From Oscillospiraceae bacterium (GTDB taxonomy: Bacteria > Bacillota > Clostridia > Oscillospirales > Oscillospiraceae): a stretch of 64,000 bases of DNA. The notes under the pieces are model-generated. The model ran no database searches, was not told the DNA's origin, and saw only the letters and a program-made list of their open reading frames with translations. The position numbers and the translations under genes are program-made. Positions 1-12,645 of this stretch are shown here, piece by piece. The DNA is taken from positions 878-64,877 of the forward strand of contig JAFZSD010000025.1 in the NCBI GenBank assembly GCA_017619535.1, given 5' to 3'. Positions within the stretch are counted from its first letter, which is position 1, and every line of letters begins with the position of its first letter.

Positions 1-141
1 GGCCTGCTTGCCGTCGATGAAACGGTTGATGAGCGCCGTCTTGCCTACGCGGCGGCGCCCGTAGAGGACGACAAACTCAAACTTGCCGGAGTTATACAGA
101 TTGTTCAGGGAGGCGAGCTCCCGCTCTCTGCCGATAAACAT
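1..141 (-). CDS. AAA+ ATPase (archaeal-ATPase/DUF234-like), N-terminal 47 codons only; gene runs off the left edge
   Basis: Reverse translation from ATG at 141-139: MFIGRERELASLNNLYNSGKFEFVVLYGRRRVGKTALINRFIDGKQA, with Walker A GRRRVGKT. Absent from the ORF track because it is open-ended. Confidence 0.65.
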   Translation of the reverse strand, partial: MFIGRERELASLNNLYNSGKFEFVVLYGRRRVGKTALINRFIDGKQA

Positions 142-191
142 GTAGACTACCCCCATGTTAGGTTGCCTATATTATAGCACACGGCATAATA

Positions 192-230
192 AATAGTCAA
201 GTACGATTAGGCAAATCGTACTTGACTATT
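192..230 (-). terminator. Perfect 17-bp inverted repeat hairpin between the RHH gene and the ATPase start
   Basis: AATAGTCAAGTACGATT (192-208) / AATCGTACTTGACTATT (214-230) with a 5-nt loop. On the minus strand it is followed by TTTATTAT. Confidence 0.5.
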
Positions 231-248
231 TTCTGCGTATAAATGAAT

Positions 249-274
249 GCGGGCATCCACGCTTGGATGCCCGC
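249..274 (-). terminator. 11-bp stem hairpin just downstream of the RHH gene
   Basis: GCGGGCATCCA (249-259) / TGGATGCCCGC (264-274). Lies 38 nt past the stop of the minus-strand ORF 312..494. Confidence 0.45.
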
Positions 275-311
275 TGAATTATTCTTGTCCATTCGGTCCG
301 AATTGACCAGA

Positions 312-494
312 TTACTGCTTCTCGATCTTCCCGTGCTCTCTTTCAAACTCCTCGATGGCCTTGCGGATCAGGTAGATCACTTCGCCGTTGGCCGAGCGGC
401 CCTCGTACTGAGAGATATAGTGCAGTTTATAGTGAAGCTCGCTGTCGATGCGCAACCCGAGGTGCTTATCCTTTTCCTTCTTCAGAGCGTCCAT
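312..494 (-). CDS. Small ribbon-helix-helix (Arc/CopG/HicB-antitoxin-like) DNA-binding protein, 60 aa
   Basis: ORF-track protein MDALKKEKDKHLGLRIDSELHYKLHYISQYEGRSANGEVIYLIRKAIEEFEREHGKIEKQ. The basic beta-strand LGLRID followed by two helices is the typical RHH layout. Confidence 0.6.
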   Translation of the reverse strand: MDALKKEKDKHLGLRIDSELHYKLHYISQYEGRSANGEVIYLIRKAIEEFEREHGKIEKQ

Positions 495-606
495 GCCAAG
501 CCCTCCATGTACTTGATATAAGATAACTTGAGTTTATTTCAAGTACATGTTAGAATGTGTAGAGTGTACTTACTTTAAGTACACAACATTTGAAGAGGGT
601 GAGGAT

Positions 607-918
607 ATGGAGGCAGTCGGAAGGGCGTTTTTCGTCAGATCTCCGCGCAGGATCGAGAATCTGCAGACGCTGCATCTGGTTGAGAGGGAGCGTCCGTTTG
701 AGATTGTCAAAACGGTGAAGCTGGCAAAGATCGACTATGAGAATTTCATCACGGACATGTTGGCCGACCGGCAGTTCATCGAGGATCACGCCGCGCTTTG
801 CTCAAAGGGAAGGGTGTGGCGCTGCATCCTGATCCAGCTGCGTGGCCACATGGACGGCGTGCTTGTGATGCCGGAAGACGGCTGCTATGTCGGCTGGGCG
901 GCGTATTACAGCGAATAA
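607..918 (+). CDS. Conserved hypothetical protein (103 aa), family not recognised
   Basis: ORF 547..918. The internal ATG at 607 (MEAVGRAFFVRSP...) is preferred over the upstream start, which lies inside an AT-rich palindromic spacer. A hairpin follows the stop. Confidence 0.45.
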   Translation: MEAVGRAFFVRSPRRIENLQTLHLVERERPFEIVKTVKLAKIDYENFITDMLADRQFIEDHAALCSKGRVWRCILIQLRGHMDGVLVMPEDGCYVGWAAYYSE

Positions 919-922
919 AACG

Positions 923-950
923 GCCCCTGCCTTCTTCTTAAGGCAGGGGC
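923..950. terminator. Bidirectional hairpin between convergent genes
   Basis: GCCCCTGCCT (923-932) / AGGCAGGGGC (941-950). The T-run (GTTTTATT) is on the minus-strand side. Confidence 0.5.
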
Positions 951-965
951 TGAGCCGTAGTATGC

Positions 966-1100
966 TTATTCTTCGTCCTTCACCGGCGGTTCGGATAGAA
1001 AGGTGTCCATCATAAAACATGCCCCCAACCGGAAGCCGGTGACAAAGCCGTCCAAGGTGGAGTCGCTATTGAACGTGAACCAGGCGTCGGCGAAAGTGGA
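966..1100 (-). pseudogene. 3' relic (about 44 codons) of the repeated small acidic protein gene (copy A)
   Basis: Reverse translation STFADAWFTFNSDSTLDGFVTGFRLGACFMMDTFLSEPPVKDEE* aligns with the C-terminal halves of ORFs 1174..1473 and 3817..4122. There is no N-terminal half or start codon. Confidence 0.7.
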
Positions 1101-1173
1101 GACGGCAAAGAATTACACTTTTCAATAGAGAATTGGAGCTAAAAAACACACTTTTCAAATTTGCCTGCTGATC

Positions 1174-1473
1174 CTACCCCTCCAGAAAGCTTTCGCGCTG
1201 TGCGTCGTCGCTCAAAAAGGTATCCATCATAAACCGCGCTCCGAGCCGAAAGCCGGTGACGAAGCCGTCCAGGGTAGAGTCGCCGTTGAACGAGGACCAG
1301 GCGTCGGCAAAGTCCAGGAAGCGCTTCTTTTCCTCGCCGGTCAGCGTATCGGCAAGAAACTCCTCGTCCTCCCGGATCGTCTGCATCGTGCACTGCACGC
1401 TCTCGTTTTCCTCAAAGCCGCTGTTCTGCGGATCGATATTGCCGTAATAGAGCTCCTCAATAAAGCTTTTCAT
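1174..1473 (-). CDS. Small acidic conserved protein, copy B (99 aa); family not confidently named
   Basis: MKSFIEELYYGNIDPQNSGFEENES... shares most positions over the first ~85 residues with ORF 3817..4122. AAGGAG SD lies 8 nt upstream. Confidence 0.75.
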   Translation of the reverse strand: MKSFIEELYYGNIDPQNSGFEENESVQCTMQTIREDEEFLADTLTGEEKKRFLDFADAWSSFNGDSTLDGFVTGFRLGARFMMDTFLSDDAQRESFLEG

Positions 1474-1590
1474 GTCGTTTCTCCTTGTATTTTTTAGGAG
1501 AAACCCGTGCGTTTTCTGCCTGAAAACATAGATTTTGCAACTTTTTTAAATGTGCTTGCTCAGATACGTTATTCACCGCTTGACCAAACT
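1474..1590 (-). repeat. Conserved leader/promoter block, copy 1 (also at 4123-4238 and, truncated, 6661-6750)
   Basis: Near-identical strings GAAACCCGTGCGTTTTCTGCCTGAAAACATAGATTTTGCAAC...GTGCTTGCTCA...CGTTATTCACCGCTTGACCA occur in all copies. Confidence 0.85.
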
Positions 1591-1650
1591 GGGACAAACG
1601 GAGTCAAACGGAGACATATAGGGACATATGGCGACATATGAGGACTTACG
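1591..1650. repeat. Six tandem 10-bp repeats (iteron-like), consensus GRGACAWAYG
   Basis: gggacaaacg gagtcaaacg gagacatata gggacatatg gcgacatatg aggacttacg, exactly in 10-bp register, directly upstream (minus sense) of leader block 1. Confidence 0.85.
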
Positions 1651-1937
1651 GAAAATCCCTCCCCCGCAACGGTTGCACATTTGCTTGAAGAACAGAACGC
1701 AACAGGAATCCAGACTGACAAGATTGCTGTTGCGTTCTTTGTCTCCCAGGTTATGCACCCAGCAAAACCCTTTTCAGTTTGGAGTTGACTTTCTGTTTGA
1801 ATGCATAATATACCAAGGCATATTTCTGTTCGTTTTCAATTCACGATAGCTACACAAGTTAAAACGCAGAAACACACATGCTATATTATACATATTCTCT
1901 GGAATGATTATTAAACACGGAAATTCCGTTTTTAATG

Positions 1938-1966
1938 TTGACAATTAGGGTATACTATCTTATAAT
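1938..1966 (+). promoter_or_regulatory. Canonical sigma-70 type promoter for the ATPase/Toprim operon
   Basis: TTGACA (1938-1943), 17-nt spacer, TATAAT (1961-1966). The 13-bp palindrome ACGGAAATTCCGT sits just upstream. Confidence 0.65.
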
Positions 1967-2024
1967 TGCGGCAGGTGAAAGCGTTAATTACAGAAAATGT
2001 GTTATTAGCATTGGAGGTGCAGCT

Positions 2025-3218
2025 ATGATTCTCTTGAAACTGTGCGTGTCAGGATTGCCGTTATTTCAAGGCAAATGTGAAATTGACTTCATGGCCCAAC
2101 AAAGAGTAACTGAGGAAAATGCTGAACAGATGGCACGAGTTTTCTCAACTGGATTGCAGGATTTTCACAAAAATAATGTCTTGTCGTTTATTGGCATCAA
2201 TGCTTCCGGCAAAACAACCTTGCTCAAATTGATTTCTTTTTCTTTAGGTTTGCTCAACAACGAACCCATTAATACGATTGACTGCGTCGAAGTATTAGAT
2301 GGAGTAATAGAAGGCAATCAAGTAGTATTTGAATTCTATTTCTATGCTAAGAATGGGTCTACCTACCCCTTCGATGGAAATGGCGCTATTAATTTCCTCC
2401 AGACAACTATCACTCGGAGGAAAAACAAATTTGTCATCATCTATGAAACGCTAAAGTCAAAACCTGTGGACAAAACAATGCGGAAGAAGAACTTGTTCGA
2501 TTTTTCTTCCGTCGAAATCAACATGTCAAGGCAACATATTAATTCAGAGTTTTTGCTTGATGATGTCAGTATCATGGTTGCTTTTAATAAAAGGAACAAA
2601 GAAGAACTCTTATTAATTGATATGTTGCAGTATACCAATGACAACCACCTGAACATTTCCGAAGATTGTCCTCTTGAATTAATTGCTTTCTTTGATCCAA
2701 GCGTTGAATATCTGAAGTTGAAGAGCACTGACACCAATACCGATATTTGTTTGAAATTCAAGGGAAAAGAAGAGATCATCCTCAAGCAGCTATCAGAATT
2801 AAATAGATATCTCTCATCAGGTACCATCAAGGGCATTAATGTGTTTCTCAGCGCAATGAACACTTTTAAGACGGGCGGCTACCTTGTTGTTGATGAATTG
2901 GAAAACCATTTCAACCGTGAGATTGTTTCGACAATCATACGCTTTTATATGGATCCAAAAGTAAACTATAATGGTGCCACACTGGTGTTCTCCACGCATT
3001 ACCCTGAGTTGTTGGATGAATTTGAACGCAACGATAACATCTACATTGTAAGAAACAGACAGGGTATTACTGCAGAGAATCTGTCCACAATTCTTAAACG
3101 CAATGATATTAAAAAGAGCGAAGCATATCAAAGTGACTTTCTTGAGGGCACTGTGCCTGCATATGATGCCTATATAGGTTTAAAGAAATCCTTGATCCGA
3201 AACGGCAAGGAGGACTAA
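2025..3218 (+). CDS. ABC-type (AAA_15/AAA_21-like) ATPase of abortive-infection/OLD/PARIS AriA type, 397 aa
   Basis: Start ATG 2025 with GGAGGTG SD. Walker A GINASGKTT, Walker B YLVVDELE, H-loop-like VFSTHYPELL. N-terminus MILLKLCVSGLPLFQGKCEIDF is typical of this family. Strongly AT-rich compared with the core DNA. Confidence 0.75.
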   Translation: MILLKLCVSGLPLFQGKCEIDFMAQQRVTEENAEQMARVFSTGLQDFHKNNVLSFIGINASGKTTLLKLISFSLGLLNNEPINTIDCVEVLDGVIEGNQVVFEFYFYAKNGSTYPFDGNGAINFLQTTITRRKNKFVIIYETLKSKPVDKTMRKKNLFDFSSVEINMSRQHINSEFLLDDVSIMVAFNKRNKEELLLIDMLQYTNDNHLNISEDCPLELIAFFDPSVEYLKLKSTDTNTDICLKFKGKEEIILKQLSELNRYLSSGTIKGINVFLSAMNTFKTGGYLVVDELENHFNREIVSTIIRFYMDPKVNYNGATLVFSTHYPELLDEFERNDNIYIVRNRQGITAENLSTILKRNDIKKSEAYQSDFLEGTVPAYDAYIGLKKSLIRNGKED

Positions 3219-3220
3219 TC

Positions 3221-3742
3221 ATGAACCTTACCAAGTATGTTGCTTGCATTTGCGAGGGTTCAGCTGAGCGAGCCATTATCAAGCTTCTTTTGGATGAAAA
3301 CCGACTGATTTTCACTTGGGATGATCTACTTGAAGGTGAAATCCTCCGCTGCCGAAACGCTAAGAAATTTGAGGAACAGCATTTAAGAAAAGGGTTTACA
3401 GATAAAATTACCGTTTTGAGAATTCTAGATTCAAGGCGTGAGAGATTTAAACTGAGTAAAGCCTACGCCAGCAAAATTGATGTTGTGAATGTAATTACGG
3501 CGCCTGAAATTGAGATGCTCGTTATATTTGCAGAAGGAAAATACGACGAATATAAGAAGTCGAAAAAGAAGCCAAGTACATTTTGCAAAGAAGATTTAAA
3601 AATCAGCGATGTAAAAAGCATTCAATTTGTCGAGTCGTATTTTGCTGACATTGAAGTTCTTATTTCCGCCATTCGCGAATATCGGCGAGTTTCCAGCATT
3701 CAAAGAGGCGAATATGCGTTATCAGACTTATTGAACGAATAA
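3221..3742 (+). CDS. Small Toprim-like (RloB/DUF4276-like) protein, 173 aa, partner of the ATPase
   Basis: Starts 2 nt after the ATPase stop. N-terminal acidic motif VACICEGSAERAII and downstream APEIEMLVIF resemble Toprim/DUF4276 signature positions. The assignment is motif-level only. Confidence 0.5.
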   Translation: MNLTKYVACICEGSAERAIIKLLLDENRLIFTWDDLLEGEILRCRNAKKFEEQHLRKGFTDKITVLRILDSRRERFKLSKAYASKIDVVNVITAPEIEMLVIFAEGKYDEYKKSKKKPSTFCKEDLKISDVKSIQFVESYFADIEVLISAIREYRRVSSIQRGEYALSDLLNE

Positions 3743-3779
3743 CAGCATAATGGGTTTTTATAGAGGAGAAAGTGCAAAT

Positions 3780-3811
3780 GATCCAGCCTTGCCGTTTGGC
3801 AGAGCTGGATC
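3780..3811. terminator. Strong bidirectional hairpin between convergent cargo and backbone genes
   Basis: GATCCAGC...GCTGGATC outer stem plus TGCC/GGCA inner stem. Lies between stop 3742 (+) and stop 3817 (-). Confidence 0.6.
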
Positions 3812-3816
3812 GTCAT

Positions 3817-4122
3817 TTATATTTCGTCTTTCTGATAATCTGTGCTGGATGCTTTCAACGTGACGAAAGCATCCAGCATGAACCCTGCTCCCAAACGGAA
3901 GCCGGTGACGAAACCGTCCAGGGTAGCCTCGCCGTTGAAGGCGGACCAGGCGTCGGCAAAGTCGAGAAAGCGCTTCTTCTCCTCGCCGGTCAGGGTATCG
4001 GCAAGAAAGTCCTCATTCTCCCGGATCGTCCGCATCGTGCGCTGCACGCCCTCGTCATCCTCAAAACCGCTGTTCTGCGGGTCGATATTGCCGTAATAGA
4101 GCTCCTCAATAAAGCTTTTCAT
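3817..4122 (-). CDS. Small acidic conserved protein, copy C (101 aa)
   Basis: MKSFIEELYYGNIDPQNSGFEDDEG... is a paralog of 1174..1473. Its C-terminal ~18 aa diverge and are encoded by a 14-bp perfect inverted repeat (3843-3878). Confidence 0.75.
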   Translation of the reverse strand: MKSFIEELYYGNIDPQNSGFEDDEGVQRTMRTIRENEDFLADTLTGEEKKRFLDFADAWSAFNGEATLDGFVTGFRLGAGFMLDAFVTLKASSTDYQKDEI

Positions 4123-4238
4123 ATCGTTTCTCCTTGTACTATTTTAGGAGAAACCCGTGCGTTTTCTGCCTGAAAACATAGATTTTTCAACGTTTTTTAC
4201 TGTGCTTGCTCACATCCGTTATTCACCGCTTGACCATT
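4123..4238 (-). repeat. Conserved leader/promoter block, copy 2
   Basis: Aligns base-for-base with 1474-1590 apart from scattered substitutions. Confidence 0.85.
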
Positions 4239-4300
4239 GGAGACTTATGACGAAATATGAGGATTTATGAAGACTTATGCGGACTTATGAGGCTTTACGT
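4239..4300. repeat. Six tandem 10-bp repeats (iteron-like), consensus GACTTATGMG
   Basis: ggagacttat gacgaaatat gaggatttat gaagacttat gcggacttat gaggctttac, in the same position relative to the leader block as 1591-1650 but with a different core (TTATG vs ATATG). Confidence 0.85.
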
Positions 4301-4400
4301 CAATCTCGCTACCGGCAAAATAATCTAATATGCATCGGCATATAATCTTGATATATTGCCGATAATGTGCTATAATAGGCAACGAAAGCGAGGGAAAGCC

Positions 4401-5297
4401 ATGTACTATCTTTCTGTTTCGGAAGCGGCAAAAAAGTGGGGAATATCTGAACGCAGCGTGCGGAACTACTGCGCACAAGGCAGAGTCGACGGGGCGATTC
4501 TGGTTGGTAAGACCTGGCGCATTCCGCAGAATGCCGAAAAGCCGGATCGACTCAACAAGCACAGTGATAAGCCGAAATCGCTTCTGGAGGTGTTGAAAGC
4601 CGAAAAGGCGGCCAAGCTCCACGGCGGTATTTATCATAAGATCCAAATCGAACTGACCTACAACTCCAACCACATCGAGGGCAGCCGGCTCACCCACGAT
4701 CAGACTCGCTATATCTTTGAGACAAACACCATCGGCATTACCGACGCCGCAGTAAAGGTGGACGATGTGGTTGAAACGGCCAATCATTTCAAATGCATCG
4801 ATATGATCATCGACAATGCCGCTTATGCCCCCAGTGAGTCGTTCATTAAGCAGCTCCACGCCGTGCTGAAAAGCGGGACTACCGATTCGCGACAGGACTG
4901 GTTTGCCGTAGGCGATTACAAAATGCTTCCCAACGAAGTTGGAGGCATGGATACCACCTCGCCGGAGTACGTCGCCGAGCGTATGAAAAAACTGCTGGCC
5001 GAGTATAACGCGGTCAAAGAGAAGTCTTTTGACGACTTGCTGGACTTTCATTACCGCTTCGAGCGGATCCACCCGTTTCAGGACGGAAACGGCAGAGTCG
5101 GGCGGTTGCTTCTCTTTAAAGAATGCCTGCGGAATAACATGGTGCCGTTTATCATCGACGAGGAACTCAAGCTGTATTACTATCGCGGCTTGAAGGAATG
5201 GGAGCACGAGCGCGGTTATCTCCGGGACACCTGCTTGACTGCGCAGGACAAGTTCAAGAAGTATCTGGATTATTTCAAGGTGCCGTATGAGGGCTGA
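4401..5297 (+). CDS. Fic family protein with N-terminal MerR/excisionase-type HTH, 298 aa
   Basis: MYYLSVSEAAKKWGISERSVRNYCAQGRV (HTH). Fic motif HPFQDGNGRVGR is present. ATG 4401 chosen within ORF 4356..5297. Confidence 0.85.
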   Translation: MYYLSVSEAAKKWGISERSVRNYCAQGRVDGAILVGKTWRIPQNAEKPDRLNKHSDKPKSLLEVLKAEKAAKLHGGIYHKIQIELTYNSNHIEGSRLTHDQTRYIFETNTIGITDAAVKVDDVVETANHFKCIDMIIDNAAYAPSESFIKQLHAVLKSGTTDSRQDWFAVGDYKMLPNEVGGMDTTSPEYVAERMKKLLAEYNAVKEKSFDDLLDFHYRFERIHPFQDGNGRVGRLLLFKECLRNNMVPFIIDEELKLYYYRGLKEWEHERGYLRDTCLTAQDKFKKYLDYFKVPYEG

Positions 5298-5312
5298 TGA
5301 GTTTCTGCTTGA

Positions 5313-6524
5313 ATGACAATAAACGCCAATAGCGTGAATTCAGAAGAAAAGGCCAATATGTATGCAGGAGAATTTGATATGGATTTCAACGATGTGATTT
5401 CATTTATTCAATCAGCCACTCCAGAGCTAAACGATTCGTATTGCTTTGTAAATGGTTCTTTGATGCGATTGGATCAAATAGAGAGTATGGGCTACCGCGA
5501 ATTTTGGATGCGCTCCAAGCTGAATATGCCGAAAAAGCTATATAAGTATTATTCAAATATAAGCAAAGAAAAGGATGGCATAGAGATTAACCATTCGCAT
5601 CAGGCACTTGAAAACAATACCGTGTTCATGCAATCACCAAGCGAATTTGATGATGTGTACGATTCCGATATACATATTGAATATGGAGATTATGAGAAGT
5701 ACCGGTTGCTTGAATACTGTCATCGCAGTCAGCTGAGTATTGAAAGCAATGCAACTTCTCAAGAACTCGGTGACAGTTTTTTGCATTGGATATTTGAGAC
5801 TTACCACCGTACACATTCATTTGACAGTTTCTTCCCAAAAAACCCAGAATCAGGGCTTGAAGAATTATCAAATTATAATTTCAGCTTAAGTCTGCAAAAC
5901 CAACTTCAGAAAGGGCTGGACTGGGGCAATGCATTGGCAAAAGTTATCAGAACGGAGTACGAGGGGTTTACTTCCCAGCTCAAGACGACATTTAGAACCG
6001 CTTGCTTCACCACGACTCCGTATTCTCAGCTTATGTGGGGCGGAGCATATGCGGATTGTCATAGAGGATTCTGCATTGAGTATACTGTTTTGCCAGAGAA
6101 TATAAACTATCAGGAAGTCTATCAAAATCTGTTTCCCATGGTTTATTGCAGAGCAAGACCAAATGTTTCTGCGCGAATCGTTGCTTATAAAGACAAACCA
6201 CTAACGGTAGAGAACCTTTGGGATATTTATTTTCATGGAGCTTTGCGGAAAAGCATAGACTGGACCTACCAGAATGAGTGGAGGTTGTTGCTTCCATTAG
6301 GGCGAGCTAAGGGGACGAATTATAACATTCTGTTCTTCCCAATAACAAAAGTCTTTCTCGGAAATAGAATGGCCCCGGAAAAGCGGGAAAAAATAATAGA
6401 GATCTGTCAGAGCAGAAATATCCCCTATGTTGGAGTTACACGAAATCCGGATTATTTTGAAATGCAAGAATGCGATGTGCAATGTGAGGATTGCCCTCAA
6501 TACAAGGTTTGTATTAAAGACTAA
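5313..6524 (+). CDS. DUF2971 family protein, 403 aa
   Basis: LYKYYS...NNTVFMQSPSEFDDVYDS, CFTTTPYSQLMWGGAYADCHRGFCIEY and YQNEWRLL match the characteristic DUF2971 motif order. AT-rich. The start could instead be ATG 5358. Confidence 0.7.
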   Translation: MTINANSVNSEEKANMYAGEFDMDFNDVISFIQSATPELNDSYCFVNGSLMRLDQIESMGYREFWMRSKLNMPKKLYKYYSNISKEKDGIEINHSHQALENNTVFMQSPSEFDDVYDSDIHIEYGDYEKYRLLEYCHRSQLSIESNATSQELGDSFLHWIFETYHRTHSFDSFFPKNPESGLEELSNYNFSLSLQNQLQKGLDWGNALAKVIRTEYEGFTSQLKTTFRTACFTTTPYSQLMWGGAYADCHRGFCIEYTVLPENINYQEVYQNLFPMVYCRARPNVSARIVAYKDKPLTVENLWDIYFHGALRKSIDWTYQNEWRLLLPLGRAKGTNYNILFFPITKVFLGNRMAPEKREKIIEICQSRNIPYVGVTRNPDYFEMQECDVQCEDCPQYKVCIKD

Positions 6525-6603
6525 AATGTAAAGACAAACTCCTCGCGAGCAAGATTCTACTATTTGAAATATCAACACTCTCAAAAATATGTTTTCCCAT
6601 TTT

Positions 6604-6639
6604 GAAACAGCAGCCGCTGAATTATGCGGCTGCTGTTTC
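6604..6639 (+). terminator. Rho-independent-type hairpin after the DUF2971 gene
   Basis: GAAACAGCAGCCGC (6604-6617) / GCGGCTGCTGTTTC (6626-6639). Confidence 0.6.
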
Positions 6640-6660
6640 TGCCTTCGCGTATATTTCAAC

Positions 6661-6750
6661 AAGAAACCCGAGCGCTTTCTGCCTAAAACCATAGATTTTG
6701 CAACGTTTTGAAAACGTGCTGGCTCAAGTGCGTTATTCACCGCTTGACCA
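6661..6750 (-). repeat. Conserved leader/promoter block, copy 3 (orphan: no downstream small gene, no iterons)
   Basis: AAGAAACCCGAGCGCTTTCTGCCTAAAACCATAGATTTTGCAACGTTTTGAAAACGTGCTGGCTCAAGTGCGTTATTCACCGCTTGACCA. Similarity ends at the first arm of the leader hairpin. Confidence 0.8.
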
Positions 6751-6754
6751 CGTT

Positions 6755-6793
6755 AGTACGCAAGCTATGATACAATAGCTTGCGTACTTTTTT
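6755..6793 (+). terminator. 14-bp stem hairpin plus T-run
   Basis: AGTACGCAAGCTAT (6755-6768) / ATAGCTTGCGTACT (6775-6788) followed by TTTTT. Confidence 0.5.
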
Positions 6794-6918
6794 GCGTATC
6801 TCCCCGGGAAAACCCTTGATACAAGGGCAAAGCGAGACAGGTGGGTGCAAATATGCATCTGCCAGTCTCGCTTTTTTGCTTTTTTCGACTTATATGCTCT
6901 AACTAGAGGTTTCTGGAC

Positions 6919-6932
6919 TTGCACCCACCCCC
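6919..6932 (+). repeat. Left copy of the 14-bp direct repeat TTGCACCCACCCCC
   Basis: Identical 14-mer at 9451-9464. Related GGGTGCA...ATCTGC motifs lie nearby on both sides (6841-6863 and 9416-9447). Confidence 0.8.
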
Positions 6933-7022
6933 TATACTTTTTGGCGTTTCTCAAGATACGCCAAAAGGTTCTCTAGAGTTATATTTTATCAAAGAACTCC
7001 TTTATATCGCATTATTCTCCCC

Positions 7023-7050
7023 TTGACAACATGGAAAAAGAGAATATAAT
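7023..7050 (+). promoter_or_regulatory. Sigma-70 type promoter for the MYG1/CCA operon
   Basis: TTGACA (7023-7028), 16-nt spacer, TATAAT (7045-7050). Confidence 0.6.
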
Positions 7051-7101
7051 AGCACCCTTTGTTCCTGACGGAAAAGGAATCTGTTCAGGTGGGTGTTGAA
7101 A

Positions 7102-7932
7102 ATGCTAGCTTTGGAAAATACCACTTCTATTTTTGTCCATGCCGGAATATTTCACGCAGATGACGCTTTTGCAGCTGCGCTGGTTATAGCTGCGGCCGGA
7201 AGAGTCATTCCTGTGGAAAGATGTTTATCGGTTCCTAAAGGCCTCCCGGATTCCATAATCATAGCGGATATTGGCCGAGGGAAATATGATCATCACCAGG
7301 ATGATGCAAAGCTCAGAGCAGACGGGAAAAAATATGCCGCCTGCGGACTCCTGTATGAAGAATTGAAGGAGCGTCTGTTCCTCACGGAAGAGGCGAGAGA
7401 GGAGTTTCGTTCCCACTTTATTCTTCCTATTGAGGATGCAGATAACGGCATTTCAAATAATCCTCTAACATGCTATATTGATGATATGAATCCCGATTGG
7501 GACAGGCCGGAGGAAAGCGACAGAAGATTTAGCGGTGCCGTAAAACTGTTCCTAAATCTAATCGAAGCTGCGCAAAGAAAAGAAAAGGCCGCTCTTCGTG
7601 CTGATCATCTTCTCTCTGACGCTTTAGCTAAAGCGGAGGGGAAAGTAGTCCTGCTGGAAAAACCAGTCCCTTGGCAGAGGAGAGTCTGCCAAACTGATAA
7701 TCTGTTTGTGATATATTATTCCCAAAGAGGTGTATGGACCGTTCAATGTGTTCCGGAAGAGCCAGATTCCTTCATTGTCCGATATCCGTTATCACCTATG
7801 GAGGAAATGGAGGGCTGCATATTCTGTCATGCCGGGCGGTTTCTTGCGGCGTTTGACTCGGAGGAACATGCCATAAATGCTGCGAGGAAGCTGGTAAGAG
7901 AAAGTGAGCTGAAGACTAATGGAAATTCCTGA
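7102..7932 (+). CDS. MYG1 (UPF0160) family metal-dependent exonuclease/hydrolase, 276 aa
   Basis: VHAGIFHADDAFAAAL near the N-terminus and GKYDHHQ match the MYG1 signature. ATG 7102 is preceded by AGGTGGG. Confidence 0.75.
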   Translation: MLALENTTSIFVHAGIFHADDAFAAALVIAAAGRVIPVERCLSVPKGLPDSIIIADIGRGKYDHHQDDAKLRADGKKYAACGLLYEELKERLFLTEEAREEFRSHFILPIEDADNGISNNPLTCYIDDMNPDWDRPEESDRRFSGAVKLFLNLIEAAQRKEKAALRADHLLSDALAKAEGKVVLLEKPVPWQRRVCQTDNLFVIYYSQRGVWTVQCVPEEPDSFIVRYPLSPMEEMEGCIFCHAGRFLAAFDSEEHAINAARKLVRESELKTNGNS

Positions 7933-9298
7933 AAACAAAAATGTCGTCATGGCAAGGATGATAGCTCAAAAGGTGGCGTTGGAAGGTGGCAGGGCCTTCT
8001 ATGTCGGCGGCATTGTGCGGGATCATATACTTGGCCTGGATAATAAAGATGTGGACATTGAAATACATGGAATCACGCCGGAGAAACTTGCTGAAATACT
8101 GGAGACTTTCGGAGAGGTCACGAAAACAGGATTGAGTTTCGGCGTGTTCGGACTGAAGAAGTATGAAATCGATATTGCCATGCCCCGGAAAGAGACGGCT
8201 GTTGGCCGCGGGCACAGGGATTTTGAAATTGATGTTGACCCATTCATAGGATACGAAAAAGCCGCCTTGCGACGTGACTTCACAATGAACGCCATGATGG
8301 AAGATGTGCTAACCGGTGAGATCCTGGACTATTTCGGTGGCAGAGAAGATATGAAAAAACATCTGATTCGCCATGTGAATGATGCCACATACCGGGAGGA
8401 CGCTCTGAGAGTCCTCCGTGCTGCACAGTTTGCCGCAAGATTCCAGTTTGAGATCGCAGATGAGACACGATATGTATCACAGACTATGAATCTGGCAGAA
8501 CTTGCACCGGAGAGAATTCATGATGAATTGAATAAAGCTCTCATGAAAGCAGAGAAGCCCAGTGTTTTCTTTGATGAAATGCGGAAGATGGGGCAACTGT
8601 CCCAGTGGTTCCCGGAGATAGAAGCCCTGATTGGCGTTCCGCAAAATCCTGCGCATCATCCTGAGGGGGATGTCTGGTCTCATATGCTGATGGTGCTTGA
8701 CGCCGCTGCAGAGCTGAGAAACGATGCAAAATATCCGGAAGGCTTCATGATGTCCGCGCTCACCCACGATTTGGGAAAAGCAGTCTCTACCATTGTGGAA
8801 GAGAACAAGGTTAGCTCAATCGGACACGAAATAACCGGAGTTGCGCTTGCAAGGCAGTTTCTGAGTAGAATAAGCAACGAAAACAAACTGGCGCACTATG
8901 TTCTTAACATGGTTGAGCTTCATATGAGGCCAAACATGATGGCAAGTGACAGAGCCGGTCGAAAAGCGACTTCGAAGATGTTTGATCAGTCGGTATGCCC
9001 AGAGGATCTTCTCCTTCTTGCAAAAGCGGATTATTTTGGCAAAGGCAATGCGAAGGATTACAGCACAACCGAAGCTTTCCTTCAGGAACGCCTTTCAACC
9101 TATCGGGAGCTTATGTCGCGACCATTTGTCCAAGGGCGGGATCTGATTGAGGCAGGCATAGAACCAGGGCCAGATTTCAACGAAGCGCTGGCTTACTCGC
9201 ATAAGATGAGACTTGCGGGCGTCCCCAAAGCTGATGCTCTGGCACAGACGCTGGCCTATATCAGGAAAATGAGGCAAACACCGAGCGGGAAGATATAG
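7919..9298 (+). CDS. Class II tRNA nucleotidyltransferase (CCA-adding/poly(A) polymerase family) with C-terminal HD domain, 459 aa
   Basis: GGIVRDHILG, DVDIE, RRDFTMNA and EDALRVLRAAQFAARF head-domain motifs, plus HD motifs AHHPEGDVWSH and HDLGK. Overlaps the MYG1 gene by 14 nt. Confidence 0.85.
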   Translation: MEIPENKNVVMARMIAQKVALEGGRAFYVGGIVRDHILGLDNKDVDIEIHGITPEKLAEILETFGEVTKTGLSFGVFGLKKYEIDIAMPRKETAVGRGHRDFEIDVDPFIGYEKAALRRDFTMNAMMEDVLTGEILDYFGGREDMKKHLIRHVNDATYREDALRVLRAAQFAARFQFEIADETRYVSQTMNLAELAPERIHDELNKALMKAEKPSVFFDEMRKMGQLSQWFPEIEALIGVPQNPAHHPEGDVWSHMLMVLDAAAELRNDAKYPEGFMMSALTHDLGKAVSTIVEENKVSSIGHEITGVALARQFLSRISNENKLAHYVLNMVELHMRPNMMASDRAGRKATSKMFDQSVCPEDLLLLAKADYFGKGNAKDYSTTEAFLQERLSTYRELMSRPFVQGRDLIEAGIEPGPDFNEALAYSHKMRLAGVPKADALAQTLAYIRKMRQTPSGKI

Positions 9299-9415
9299 CA
9301 ACATCTGACACTATACCCGTTATGTGAGAAAAACATAGCCCTACCTTCACTGCCTATTATATTCAGGAAAAAAGACGACCACAACGTCCAATTGGATGTA
9401 TTCGGCAAAAAAGAA

Positions 9416-9447
9416 GGGTGCAGATGCGGTTTGCATAATCTGCACCC
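9416..9447. repeat. 10-bp stem inverted repeat next to the right direct repeat
   Basis: GGGTGCAGAT (9416-9425) / ATCTGCACCC (9438-9447). Confidence 0.7.
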
Positions 9448-9450
9448 ACT

Positions 9451-9464
9451 TTGCACCCACCCCC
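9451..9464 (+). repeat. Right copy of the 14-bp direct repeat TTGCACCCACCCCC
   Basis: Identical to 6919-6932. Confidence 0.8.
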
Positions 9465-9520
9465 CTTTGGAGGTAAGAAACGCCGAATTGTATGAATACT
9501 GGAGTCCTAACGCATGAATA

Positions 9521-9550
9521 ATAGCCGCTGGCTTTGAAGCCGGCGGCTAT
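9521..9550. terminator. Bidirectional hairpin between the CCA operon and the convergent ATPase gene
   Basis: ATAGCCGCTGGC / GCCGGCGGCTAT (one mismatch), followed by TTCTTTAT. Confidence 0.5.
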
Positions 9551-9554
9551 TTCT

Positions 9555-10922
9555 TTATCCTGTGGGCAATGTTGTTCTCCAATCAAAGAGAAGAAATGAC
9601 ATGTAATGCGGGATCGTCAGTACTCTGTCAGAAACACAAAGGTTTGAATCCTTGATCCGGATCAATCGTGTTTCCCCGTAATGGTCAGGATTTGCCATCA
9701 CCGTTTTAGCGCTTTTTGTGTTTCCGTCGACAGCTTTGACCTCAAGGATCGTGGATTCCCCGTGATAATTGATAACAAAGTCCAGTTCCAGTCTGCTTTC
9801 TTTTGCAAAGTAGAAAAGCCTTCCTCCGCGTTTATACAGTGCATCAGCGATCAGCGATTCATAGATCACGCCTTTCCCCATTCCCAGTTTTCCGGACAGT
9901 ATTGCTTCTGTTGTTCCGTCTTCAAGCATTCCCACCAGCATGCCTATGTCTGTAGTGAATACTTTATACTTGTTTTGAATTACATTGACCGAAAGCGGAG
10001 TCGCCGGAACAGTCAGATTGTGAACTTTCGTGATGACACCTGCATCTTTCAGATAATCGAGCGCATCTTTCCCTGAGTCTTTTGCACCTTTGCCTGCAAT
10101 ATGTGAAACTATGAATCTCTTATTCTCTTTTCCCAAAAATGACGGTATCAGCGAAAAAGCGCTCCTGATCCTCGCAACCTCGTTTGCGTTGAAAATCGGT
10201 TTATTGTCCTTGCCCCGACGTCTTCCGAAATCATCCTGGAGATTTCTGGTGATTCTTCTGGTAATCTGGATCGTCGAGTAGATATTGTTAGTCTCCACAT
10301 AATTGCAGACCGCCTCCGGGAATCCTCCGACACACAGATACTCCCTGAACAGTGCAGTAAAAGAGTTGTGCATGGATTTTGACAAAGGTTTCTGAGTTTC
10401 AAGTGCTTCTCTGATGTAGGACACTTCCCTGTCCGTATACCCTTTAGCCCACAGGAATTCTTCGAAATCCAACGTTCTCATATCAAACTCATCTGTGCAG
10501 CCAACAGGTTTGGGTGTATCGTCAGAAACAACATAACCATTTACCCCCAAATATGAGCCTGACGCAATATAGTCGAATCTCTTATCATTTGCTACTGTTT
10601 TTAACGACAAGAGAGCCCTCGGGCATTCCTGCACCTCGTCATATATGAAGACTGTGGTTCCATATTGCAACTCTGGCAGCGGCATCTTCACGGATAACTC
10701 ACGGATGATCGTATCCACATCCAACTCGCCGTCAAACACGTCGATCAGGTCAGGTCTGTCCCAAAAGTTGAGGTAGATCACTACTTGATAATTGCTTTCA
10801 GCAAACAACCTGATTGAATGTGTTTTCCCCGATTGTCTTATGCCTCTAACCAGTGCCGGTTTATGATCATGGTCTTCTTTCCACCCCATAAGCCACTTGT
10901 CTATGTGTCTTTTTAATTCCAC
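9555..10922 (-). CDS. AAA+ ATPase with DUF4143-type C-terminal domain, 455 aa
   Basis: KPALVRGIRQSGKTH Walker A and FIYDEVQ Walker B. GTG start at 10922 is preferred (GGAGGG SD 7 nt upstream; VELKRHIDKWL...) over the ORF-track start at 10970. Confidence 0.7.
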   Translation of the reverse strand: MELKRHIDKWLMGWKEDHDHKPALVRGIRQSGKTHSIRLFAESNYQVVIYLNFWDRPDLIDVFDGELDVDTIIRELSVKMPLPELQYGTTVFIYDEVQECPRALLSLKTVANDKRFDYIASGSYLGVNGYVVSDDTPKPVGCTDEFDMRTLDFEEFLWAKGYTDREVSYIREALETQKPLSKSMHNSFTALFREYLCVGGFPEAVCNYVETNNIYSTIQITRRITRNLQDDFGRRRGKDNKPIFNANEVARIRSAFSLIPSFLGKENKRFIVSHIAGKGAKDSGKDALDYLKDAGVITKVHNLTVPATPLSVNVIQNKYKVFTTDIGMLVGMLEDGTTEAILSGKLGMGKGVIYESLIADALYKRGGRLFYFAKESRLELDFVINYHGESTILEVKAVDGNTKSAKTVMANPDHYGETRLIRIKDSNLCVSDRVLTIPHYMSFLLFDWRTTLPTG

Positions 10923-10956
10923 CTGACATCCCTCCAACACATATGATACACATATA

Positions 10957-11012
10957 TTCGGAAAAATCAAGGCGAGTTTTAAAACATTTTCGGAAAAATC
11001 AAGGCGAGTTTT
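10957..11012. repeat. Perfect 24-bp direct repeat, two copies 32 bp apart
   Basis: TTCGGAAAAATCAAGGCGAGTTTT at 10957-10980 and 10989-11012, immediately upstream (minus sense) of the ATPase gene and at the AT-rich/GC-rich transition. Confidence 0.9.
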
Positions 11013-11065
11013 GAAAAGAAAGCGGAAACACTGACAGCAAAGTAACGAACTATGATATTGCAGAG

Positions 11066-11097
11066 AAAACCCCAGAAGTCATTTTCTGGGGTTTTTG
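11066..11097 (-). terminator. Terminator of the cob operon
   Basis: AAAACCCCAGAA / TTCTGGGGTTTT hairpin with flanking A/T runs, 85 nt past the cobQ stop. Confidence 0.7.
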
Positions 11098-11181
11098 TGT
11101 ACCGATACTCATCAGTTTTCTTTGTCGGCGGGCCTGAACTGCCGTCCCGTCCGGTGTTTTCGGGAGATATCGCTGCCGTTC

Positions 11182-12645
11182 TCACATATCCGTCCGGTTC
11201 ACGATGCGGTAGACCAGGTCCATGTCGAGTCCCCCGCGGACTGCGTCGGCAAGCTTGTTGTACTGAGCCTCGCGGTAGGTACTCTGGTCGAATGAGCCGA
11301 GCGCGGAGATATCCGTGCCTTTTTTGCAGCACAGCGCGCGGAGCACCGTTTCGGCGATGCCGGGGGCGTCGAACACGCCGTGCACGTAGGTACCGTAGGT
11401 ATCGCCGTCCGAGATGACGGGCGGAAGTTCTCCGCTTCTTCCCATGTGGATCTCATAACCCTCGTAGGACAGGCCGGAGAGCGGGGCGAGAATACCGGTG
11501 ATCTCCGGGAACACGCCGCCGGTCTGCCGCTGCACCTTGTCCCCGGAGAAAACGGTGCGGACAGGCAACAGGCCCATGCCGTCGATCCTGGTCATGCCGG
11601 ATGCCTCGACGCCGTCGGGATCCTCCACGGAACAGCCGAGCATCTGGTAGCCGCCGCAGATACCGAACACCGGCGTTCCGCGGGATTCATGCTGTTTTAT
11701 CGCTGCCTCGAGCCCGCTCTCGCGCAGCCATACGAGGTCGGATATCGTGCTCTTGGTGCCGGGGATCACGATAAGATCGGGCTCCTGCAGATCCCCGGGC
11801 TTCGTGACGTAGCGTACGGAGACGTTTTCCCACCGTTCAAACGGGGCGAGATCTGTGAAATTCGAGATACGCGGAAGACGGACGACGGCGATATCTATGA
11901 GCTTTGCCGCGCCGTCACGGTAAAACCGCTCCGAAAGGCTGTCCTCGTCGTCGATGTCCACATGAAGATACGGCACGACGCCCGCCACGGGCACGCCGCA
12001 CAGCGCGGACAGCTGCGTAAGTCCCGGCTCCAGGATCTTTCTGTCGCCGCGGAACTTGTTGACGATCACGGCCTTAATGCGTTCGCGTTCGTCGCTCTCC
12101 AGAAGGGCGACCGTGCCGTAGAGTTGGGCGAACACGCCTCCCCTGTCTATATCGCCCACGAGCAGAACGGGGGCGTCCACCATCTTAGCAAGGCCCATAT
12201 TGACGATGTCCTCGCTTTTGAGGTTTATCTCGGCCGGACTGCCGGCGCCCTCGATGACGATAATATCGTTTTCGGCCGCCAGGGAATCGTATGCCTCCAT
12301 GACGGCGGGTATGAACTCGCGCTTGCGCCGGAAATACTCCATCGCGCGCATGTTGCCGACGGGGCGTCCGTTGACGATTATCTGAGAGCCCACGTCGGTG
12401 GTCGGCTTCAGCAGGATGGGGTTCATGCGCACGTCGGGTTCGATCCCGGCGGCCTCCGCCTGCACCACCTGCGCCCGGCCCATCTCGAAACCGTCCCTGG
12501 TTATGAAAGAGTTAAGCGCCATGTTCTGGCTTTTGAACGGCGCGACGCGGTATCCGTCCTGCCGGAAGATGCGGCAGAGGGCGGCGGCTATGAGGCTCTT
12601 GCCGGCGTTGGACATGGTGCCCTGTATCATTACGTTCTTTGCCAT
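11182..12645 (-). CDS. cobQ: Cobyric acid synthase
   Basis: [27 protein letters not shown]... with a C-terminal glutamine amidotransferase-like part ([10 protein letters not shown]). Confidence 0.9.

Follow-up and report, generated by a model that had tools for sequence, protein, structure and literature searches.

A low-GC operon of an AbiLi-like ATPase gene and a small, putatively Toprim-like partner in an Oscillospiraceae bacterium

In the genome of an Oscillospiraceae bacterium (assembly GCA_017619535.1) two adjacent genes differ clearly in base composition from their surroundings, which raises the question of what they do and to which known system they are related. They were examined in a window of 64,000 nucleotides, i.e. 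the whole stretch of DNA analysed (contig JAFZSD010000025.1, positions 878 to 64,877, forward strand), and all coordinates given here are those of the window. Gene 1 (2025-3218, + strand) encodes a 397-aa AbiLi-like ATPase of the ATP-binding cassette (ABC) type (AAA_21/OLD-type). Gene 2 (3221-3742, + strand) encodes a 173-aa protein of an unannotated family, according to family profiles and an AlphaFold model a putative Toprim-like effector with distant likeness to AbiLii and RloB. Systems that combine an ABC ATPase with a Toprim protein, such as OLD, Gabija, PARIS and AbiL, make up a major class of immune systems in bacteria. An earlier note on this DNA, made from the sequence alone, had proposed a split pair of the OLD/PARIS/AbiL/RloAB kind. 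In favour of this proposal are the match of gene 1 to AbiLi, the link between gene 2 and AbiLii at the level of the family, the structure model and the pattern of conserved residues. In our opinion the two genes probably form a compact, divergent AbiL-type module, in which an OLD-like ABC ATPase would act together with a stand-alone, compact Toprim-like nuclease.

Gene 1 was compared with PADLOC, Pfam and PHROGs. The best PADLOC match was AbiLi (PDLC02335) with an E-value of 1.4e-32 and 111 bits, covering residues 2-376 and profile positions 49-280 of 326. AriA was matched with 4.9e-12, and weak matches to HEC-01A (2.6e-8), mad3 (2.9e-7), PtuA and GajA were obtained. In Pfam, AAA_21 was detected with an E-value of 3.7e-10 and 40.8 bits (curated cut-off 27). 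The N-terminus had been described as typical of AAA_15/AAA_21. The AAA_21 match is real, but it is located in the C-terminal residues 263-331, and for the N-terminus only a sub-threshold match to AAA_23 was found. The Walker A, Walker B and H-loop motifs named in the earlier note are all present. Their conservation was scored over 70 homologues with 47-92% identity. In the Walker A motif or P-loop GINASGKTT (residues 57-65 with Lys63; 2193-2219, + strand) G57 and N59-T64 are conserved to at least 97%. The same level was reached by the ABC signature-like LSSGT within the AAA_21 match (residues 263-267; 2811-2825, + strand) and by the Walker B motif YLVVDELE with D290/E291 (residues 286-293, VVDELE being 288-293; 2880-2903, + strand). 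It was also reached in the H-loop region FSTHYPELL (residues 322-330 with His325; 2988-3014, + strand) by F322, T324, H325, Y326, E328 and L330. Judged by these matches and motifs, gene 1 is an ABC ATPase of the AbiLi branch with all ATPase catalytic motifs conserved. The public record (MBO4831277.1) names it 'ATP-binding protein'.

Among the PHROGs, gene 1 matched phrog_5836 (E 1.5e-28). This phage family of unknown function is described by a profile of 1071 positions, and gene 1 covers the first 400 positions only. Phages may encode longer proteins that combine an AbiLi-like N-terminal ATPase with an uncharacterised C-terminal part.

The operon region (1938-3813, + strand) consists of a promoter, gene 1, gene 2 and a terminator-like hairpin. 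The promoter TTGACA-17-TATAAT reported in the earlier note is there: a sigma-70-type site with TTGACA at 1938-1943, a 17-nt spacer and TATAAT at 1961-1966 (+ strand), 59 nt 5' of the start of gene 1. It agrees with the consensus at 12 of 12 positions and is the best-scoring and the sole perfect one of 16 promoter-like sites in 1400-4400; shuffles of this region yield 6.8 +/- 1.8 such sites. A ribosome-binding site (RBS), GGAGGTG (2013-2019, + strand), was read from the sequence 5 nt ahead of the ATG at 2025. The longest open reading frame (ORF) of gene 1 would start at 1935. This start was rejected as an artefact, because it lies inside the promoter and is supported by no homologue; the alignments of the homologues begin with the first residue of the 397-aa protein and the public gene calls also give 397 aa, both in favour of the ATG at 2025. 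The stop codon TAA of gene 1 (3216-3218) is followed by 'TC' and the ATG of gene 2 (3221). The tight coupling with a gap of 2 nt had been noted before, and the tight spacing is kept in related loci. The RBS of gene 2, AAGGAGGA (3207-3214, + strand), likewise read from the sequence, is located within the 3' end of gene 1. The terminator-like hairpin (3778-3813, + strand) is found 36 nt past the end of gene 2, between this gene and a convergent DUF6809 gene, and is followed by a U-rich tract. Its folding energy of -31 kcal/mol (z = -4.3) was equalled by 0 of 200 shuffles. Gene 1 has a GC content of 0.380 and gene 2 of 0.385; the whole window has 0.573 and its part 7093-64000 has 0.589. This agrees with the AT-richness noted earlier. 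This low-GC two-gene unit is a self-contained, horizontally acquired operon.

The pairing of both genes was followed in other genomes. Directly upstream of gene-2 relatives a gene-1 homologue was found in 83 of 85 loci, or in 73 of the 74 loci with sufficient upstream sequence. The pairing was also seen on 17 of 18 IMG/VR contigs; the remaining contig begins at gene 2. Of 78 genome loci, 77 had a distance of -20 to +13 nt from the stop of the first gene to the start of the second. No third conserved gene was detected, the next commonest neighbour cluster being present in 12 of these 78 loci. Hence, the two families are strictly paired and tightly coupled and form one unit.

The surrounding genes are such as typically occur on integrative/conjugative and mobilisable elements. 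Among them are a MobL relaxase, the VirD4/TraG coupling protein, TrbL, a primase of the DUF3991-Toprim kind, a tyrosine integrase with an excisionase-like helix-turn-helix gene and a serine recombinase. Further neighbours are a MazF/PemK-like toxin, ParE, ImmA/XRE, a restriction-modification methylase and a Y-family polymerase. The pair occurs on a 360-kb plasmid of Ligilactobacillus salivarius next to ArdC-like, primase and topoisomerase genes, and on the Bifidobacterium breve megaplasmid pMP7017 next to Lar, YafQ and a large methyltransferase. Thus, the pair is cargo on conjugative or mobilisable elements and plasmids, and its neighbourhoods vary. Co-occurrence with defence islands had been considered in the earlier note; toxin-antitoxin, restriction-modification and integrase genes are among the neighbours, but the setting is that of mobile-element cargo and not a classical defence island.

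This context bears on a different reading of the pair, namely that it is mainly an addiction module of toxin-antitoxin type, with the ATPase as antitoxin, gene 2 as toxin and no dedicated anti-phage role. The pair is found almost only on integrative/conjugative elements and megaplasmids, beside relaxase, integrase, MazF-like and ParE genes, as would be expected for such a module. In the NetFlax study, TOPRIM_OLD toxins of Clostridium and Streptococcus origin were neutralised by AAA ATPases in E. coli, and the pairs were validated as toxin-antitoxin systems (PMC10440598). PARIS also acts as a toxin-antitoxin system (PMC13064643). However, addiction and defence are compatible roles, both in line with the present data, and it was as anti-phage systems that AbiL and PARIS, the nearest named relatives of the pair, were discovered (PMC13064643, PMC11464382). 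We consider a mainly addictive role unlikely, though it is the most serious competitor of the AbiL-type module proposed here.

The assignment of gene 2 is more difficult. Its public record (MBO4831278.1) describes a hypothetical protein of an Oscillospiraceae metagenome-assembled genome (MAG). Neither with the single sequence nor with family profiles was anything meaningful found in Pfam, PADLOC, NCBIfam, PHROGs and the PDB sequences. The best Pfam matches, DNA_pol3_a_NII (0.0033) and HAT1_C, are at chance level and were rejected. The earlier note had considered the pair a possibly undescribed variant, which holds in the sense that gene 2 is covered by none of the models of Pfam, NCBIfam, PADLOC and PHROGs and the records say hypothetical, but in that sense only. 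The family itself is large. A word-indexed search gave 1784 homologue clusters at 90% identity, none with a Pfam domain. With an exhaustive search 1035 clusters at 50% identity were obtained, 667 of them at E <= 1e-10, and nearly all members have 165-200 aa. Among the species genomes scanned, 399 contain relatives of gene 2. The hosts are mostly Clostridia (Lachnospiraceae, Oscillospiraceae, Ruminococcaceae), followed by Bacteroidales, Selenomonadaceae, Bacillales and a Sulfurovum MAG. This host spread indicates horizontal transfer. On the Ligilactobacillus salivarius plasmid NZ_CP089851.1 a homologue of 180 aa with 42% identity (WP_095759350.1; locus L100, 9184-9726) is labelled 'N-6 DNA methylase', almost certainly a mis-annotation.

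Residue conservation in gene 2 was determined with 99 diverse members, 36-64% identical to the window protein. E12, G13, E16, D70, T93, E96, E98 and K132 are conserved to 97-100%, and R67, P95, I97 and P118 to at least 90%. The length of 173 aa and the motifs CEGSAE and PEIEML (95-100) had been named in the earlier note; all are present, and the motifs are near-invariant in these relatives. Motif I, CEGSAE (residues 11-16; 3251-3268, + strand), is located at the end of strand 1 and contains E12 (98/99), the candidate Toprim glutamate, G13 (99/99) and E16 (98/99), the candidate ligand four residues further on. Motif II, LDSRRE (residues 69-74; 3425-3442, + strand), where the third core strand ends, has D70 in all 99 members, S71 in 87 and E74 in 88. 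Motif III, TAPEIEML (residues 93-100; 3497-3520, + strand), is situated past the last core strand with T93 (98/99), P95 (94/99), E96 (97/99) and E98 (99/99). Lys132 in the C-terminal helical part (98/99; 3614-3616, + strand) is a candidate catalytic lysine by analogy with K562 of Bp OLD (PMC6755086).

Is this pattern that of a Toprim protein? The 99 members were scanned singly with PADLOC, and AbiLii (PDLC02337), the family predicted in advance from the partner gene 1, was the most frequent family with four matches. Member P0209 matched AbiLii with an E-value of 9.1e-5, over residues 5-175 of the protein and positions 27-98 of the 170 in the profile; P0244 matched with 0.0033 and P0233 with 0.023. 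Once corrected for 99 queries, the best match stays at about 0.009. All three proteins are relatives of the window protein with 38-41% identity and BLASTP E-values of 1e-38 to 6e-31 (P0209 itself: 39%, 2e-33). The Pfam matches of the 99 members were all sub-threshold: OLD-like_TOPRIM for three members, RloB for one (E 0.001) and DUF4276 for one (E 0.029). Among the 36 families listed, these are the only ones that converge on one kind of protein; RloB and DUF4276 have been described as Toprim-superfamily domains (PMC12065111). The invariant glutamate that marks Toprim proteins after strand 1 is found as E12, which together with G13 lies directly past the strand at residues 6-11. The conserved residues of gene 2 occur in the order E-x3-E, D, T-x2-E-x-E and K. 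For Class 2 Bp OLD, the two-metal site was defined experimentally as E400, E404, D455/D457, T506, E508 and K562 (PMC6755086). The acidic, threonine and lysine residues of gene 2, as putative catalytic residues, thus appear to come in the sequence order known from OLD.

Structural models were compared as well. An AlphaFold2 model of gene 2 built on 57 homologues reached a mean predicted local distance difference test score (pLDDT) of 89.7 and a predicted template modelling score (pTM) of 0.86. It contains a strand at 6-11, a helix at 14-25, a bridge at 29, a helix at 47-54, a strand at 63-69, a short helix at 80-83, a strand at 86-92, a helix at 97-104 and five more helices. E12/E16 are placed where the first core strand ends, D70 at the end of the third and T93/E96/E98 at that of the fourth. 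As a control, the RloB protein WP_021533801 from a 3.9-kb E. coli plasmid was modelled with 76 PF13707 relatives (pLDDT 92.1). Here, a strand (14-18), a helix (23-35), a short strand (43-44), a helix (53-64), a strand (74-81), a helix (86-101), a strand (105-110), a helix (114-118) and more helices follow each other. The order of strands and helices is identical in both models, and the invariant RloB residues E19/G20/E24, D80 and E114 correspond in topological position to E12/G13/E16, D70 and E98 of gene 2.

Several results weigh against a Toprim-like gene 2 or against a defence module. The earlier note had suggested profile searches with hidden Markov models (HMMs) for both proteins. Gene 1 matched AbiLi and AAA_21 as given above, but the window gene 2 matched none of the listed models: in Pfam and PADLOC it gave no AbiLii, RloB, DUF4276, DUF4435 or Toprim match at E <= 1. 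None of about 57 close homologues of the window protein matched AbiLii. With hhalign, the gene 2 family and 77 RloB proteins were aligned with a probability of 1.3% and P 0.041. A null of shuffled columns gave 14.0 +/- 2.9, compared with 19.3 for the real alignment, and 6 of the 150 shuffles did as well. The four motifs line up solely in an alignment of low stringency. Searches of HMM against sequence between the gene 2 family and RloB were not significant in either direction, and bridging via a divergent Bifidobacterium branch led to 20 matches, none with a Pfam domain. The DxD motif after strand 3 is lacking; gene 2 reads D70-S71-x-x-E without the second Asp. A Toprim core has three alpha/beta layers with four parallel strands in the order 2-1-3-4; in the model the second core strand is vestigial and reduced to the single bridge at residue 29. 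Foldseek searches of the PDB and BFVD gave no match to the model at E <= 0.001, the top matches being generic Rossmann-like folds with template modelling (TM) scores of about 0.3. Furthermore, the pair was absent from 50,697 GenBank phage genomes.

The Foldseek result says little, because the bona fide RloB control likewise retrieved no Toprim; the control shares the generic match 3mtq_A with gene 2. Structure prediction followed by Foldseek, as the earlier note had suggested, thus led to a confident model with RloB-like element order, but to no significant match. The Toprim-like character read earlier into gene 2 is supported by the family-level AbiLii link, the RloB-like element order and the OLD-like residue pattern, but not by Foldseek and hhalign, which were not significant. 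With moderate, not conclusive, support from sequence and model we place gene 2 as a divergent and compact protein among the Toprim-like proteins, in their RloB/AbiLii branch.

If gene 2 were no nuclease, it could be an adaptor, either degenerate Toprim-like or of an unrelated alpha/beta kind, with a role in regulating or localising the ATPase, and the effector activity would be elsewhere or missing. The lack of a significant fold or profile match, the reduction of DxD to D-S and the vestigial second core strand would fit such an adaptor. On the other hand, eight residues conserved to 97-100% among proteins of 36-64% identity are a pattern typical of a catalytic site, and their order matches the OLD metal ligands (PMC6755086). 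Moreover, there is no third conserved gene that could supply an effector. An adaptor function is therefore improbable in our view.

For the AbiL-type module with a nuclease effector the following mode of action is proposed. The gene 1 ATPase would most likely serve as sensor and scaffold and hold the small gene-2 protein inactive. The latter would be a metal-dependent Toprim-like nuclease with E12, E16, D70, T93, E96, E98 and K132 as candidate active site. This effector would be released or activated once a phage or a competing mobile element supplies the trigger. It might then cleave nucleic acid, with tRNA or another RNA as the most plausible substrate, and arrest the cell. Abortive infection, stabilisation of the carrier element or both could be the outcome. 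The proposed restraint of a nuclease by an ATPase is based on analogy with PARIS, P2 Old and the ATPase-neutralised TOPRIM_OLD toxins of NetFlax. In PARIS, an AriA oligomer holds AriB until a phage trigger frees AriB, which cuts tRNA (PMC11464382). A module for competition between mobile elements or for conjugation, e.g. excluding or degrading incoming DNA of plasmids or integrative and conjugative elements like the SMC/Rad50-like ABC ATPase systems, would suit the position of the pair in cargo or leading regions beside ArdC-like, Lar, orphan methyltransferase and primase genes, but it is very improbable, as the nearest named relatives act on phage infection and the 397-aa AbiLi-like ATPase has no evident long coiled coil.

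In the window, the operon is bracketed by two repeats on the minus strand. The left flank repeat (1174-1586) comprises a DUF6809 gene (1174-1473; Pfam E 9e-21) and a conserved leader (1474-1586). By alignment with the left copy, the right one (3817-4236) comprises a second DUF6809 gene (3817-4122) and its leader (4124-4236). The DUF6809 copies have 83% amino acid identity, the leaders of about 113 nt are 93% identical, and the low-GC cassette with the gene pair is located between them. The identity of the leader copies ends at ...CTTGACCA and stops exactly past GTTATTCACCGCTTGACCA. A DUF6809 fragment was found at 975-1094 (minus strand) and a third, orphan leader at 6662-6750. Altogether, two cargo cassettes are situated between repeated DUF6809-plus-leader units (975-6750), one of them being the gene pair. 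This scaffold might be a hotspot of recombination or cargo exchange. Other contexts of the flanking DUF6809 genes were sought, and the same element only was found. Iteron-like tandem repeats with a 10-nt period adjoin the leader copies 1 and 2: GACATATGGC with about 2.8 copies at 1595-1640 and GACTTATGAG with 5.1 copies at 4242-4297. They may be putative binding sites for a regulator or a replication or recombination protein. Within the leader (1474-1510 and 4124-4160, minus strand), GTTTCTCC can, by eye, pair with GGAGAAAC, which holds the RBS; this could be a candidate RBS-sequestering hairpin.

The second cassette (4356-6524) encodes an HTH_17-Fic/DOC protein (313-aa ORF, GC 0.52) and, 15 nt on, a 403-aa DUF2971 protein (GC 0.40), which may be another pair of toxin or defence type. 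From about 7093 the genes look chromosomal (MYG1 family, CCA-adding enzyme, cobalamin genes). No tRNA as integration site was found in 1-12000, and Rfam gave nothing above a gathering score in 1-8000. The palindromic hairpin at 181-239 is a real inverted repeat. Its sub-threshold match to MIR169_2 on both strands (24 and 23 bits, gathering score 50) is certainly spurious as regards the family. Directly to the right of the orphan leader, 6753-6872 matched the alphaproteobacterial small RNA ar35 below the threshold (37 bits, gathering score 45, E 2.8e-4); this may be a structured element or chance. At the left edge, a 60-aa ORF (312-494, minus strand), by eye ribbon-helix-helix-like, and a 123-aa ORF (547-918, + strand) are both without Pfam match. 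The window may begin inside a mobile element whose core lies farther left.

The architecture and the likely logic of the pair are already known; new is an unannotated, very common effector family beside an AbiLi-type ATPase. More far-reaching, and at best a tentative suggestion, is the view that the pair is a distinct defence or addiction system of conjugative elements in anaerobic gut bacteria. It would then be made up of a separate, widespread and unnamed effector family of 170-190 aa (a minimal Toprim nuclease of the OLD type whose active site would be D-S / T-x2-E-x-E / Lys) and its own clade of AbiLi-like ATPases, captured here as one of two low-GC cassettes between the DUF6809-plus-leader units. 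No new principle is opened by the pair; its value would be that of a resource and a minimal model. If either of the two validated NetFlax toxins were a member of the gene-2 family, the novelty would be lowered further. To our knowledge, among the systems of ABC ATPase and Toprim protein the targets are known for PARIS and Old only. The pair would add a compact branch which is invisible to annotation pipelines, as PADLOC would report an orphan AbiLi only. With its small effector it would be a convenient minimal model for the restraint of a Toprim nuclease by an ATPase. It may also account for part of the phage and plasmid resistance located on conjugative elements of the gut microbiome.

Compared with known systems, the pair is neither PARIS nor a fused OLD protein. 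The OLD nucleases (P2 Old, Class 2 Bp OLD, Gabija GajA) share the logic of ATPase plus Toprim. In OLD and GajA both domains are fused in one polypeptide, whereas two ORFs separated by the stop at 3216-3218 are present here. The residues E-x3-E, D, T-x2-E-x-E and K of gene 2 parallel E400/E404, D455/D457, T506/E508 and K562, but the second Asp is absent, and towards OLD no significant match to PDB sequences or with Foldseek was detected. For MADS (MAD3/MAD4, the latter DUF4276) and the candidates HEC-01A/B of PADLOC all scores are weak. Gene 1 matches mad3 and HEC-01A weakly, and one member of the gene-2 family matches DUF4276 weakly. The N-terminus of HEC-01B (PDLC04188) is matched by the CEG motif of gene-2 family members with E-values inflated by concatenated queries. 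Unlike in MADS, no methylation genes are conserved beside the pair. The TOPRIM_OLD toxins of NetFlax that are neutralised by AAA(D29), of C. algidicarnis (WP_104409920.1) and S. agalactiae 2603V/R (WP_000010056.1), were compared by description; they are likewise pairs of an ATPase and a small Toprim-like protein from Firmicutes.

PARIS (AriA/AriB) also consists of an ABC ATPase of the AAA_15/21 group and a separate Toprim effector, and gene 1 matches AriA. However, AriB is a 35-kDa DUF4435/OLD-Toprim protein, gene 2 has no AriB or DUF4435 match, and for gene 1 the AbiLi score is much higher than that for AriA. AbiL has been grouped with PARIS as a system of ABC ATPase and Toprim nuclease (PMC11464382, PMC13064643). 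Closer to the pair is RloA/RloB (PF13707; WP_021533800/WP_021533801 on 3.9-kb E. coli plasmids), an ATPase with a small partner in an overlapping operon. The RloB motifs CEGEKTE, D and E have the same topological positions as CEGSAE, D70 and E98 of gene 2; RloB has YDRE (D-R-E) and CFE where gene 2 has LDS..E and PEIE. RloB proteins from small E. coli plasmids have 205-220 aa; they exceed gene 2 by about 30-45 aa, and their helices are longer. Gene 2 had been called a miniature partner; with 173 aa it is indeed smaller, but the term is overstated. In comparison with the AbiLi-like/RloB pair of the E. coli plasmids, both proteins are shorter (397 and 451 aa, 173 and 205 aa). Since the AbiLii and RloB models miss gene 2, the pair stands outside AbiL and RloAB by strict model criteria. 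Differences to AbiL are the D-S at the DxD position of gene 2, the hosts (gut Clostridia and Bacteroidales) and the integrative/conjugative elements as carriers. Some members of the gene-2 family match AbiLii, but the window gene 2 does not. In general, the pair resembles most AbiL of Lactococcus lactis (AbiLi and AbiLii in PADLOC): gene 1 agrees with the AbiLi model, the ATPase gene comes first and the small, putatively Toprim-type partner second, both are adjacent and co-oriented in one operon, here with a gap of 2 nt, and mobile elements are the carriers.

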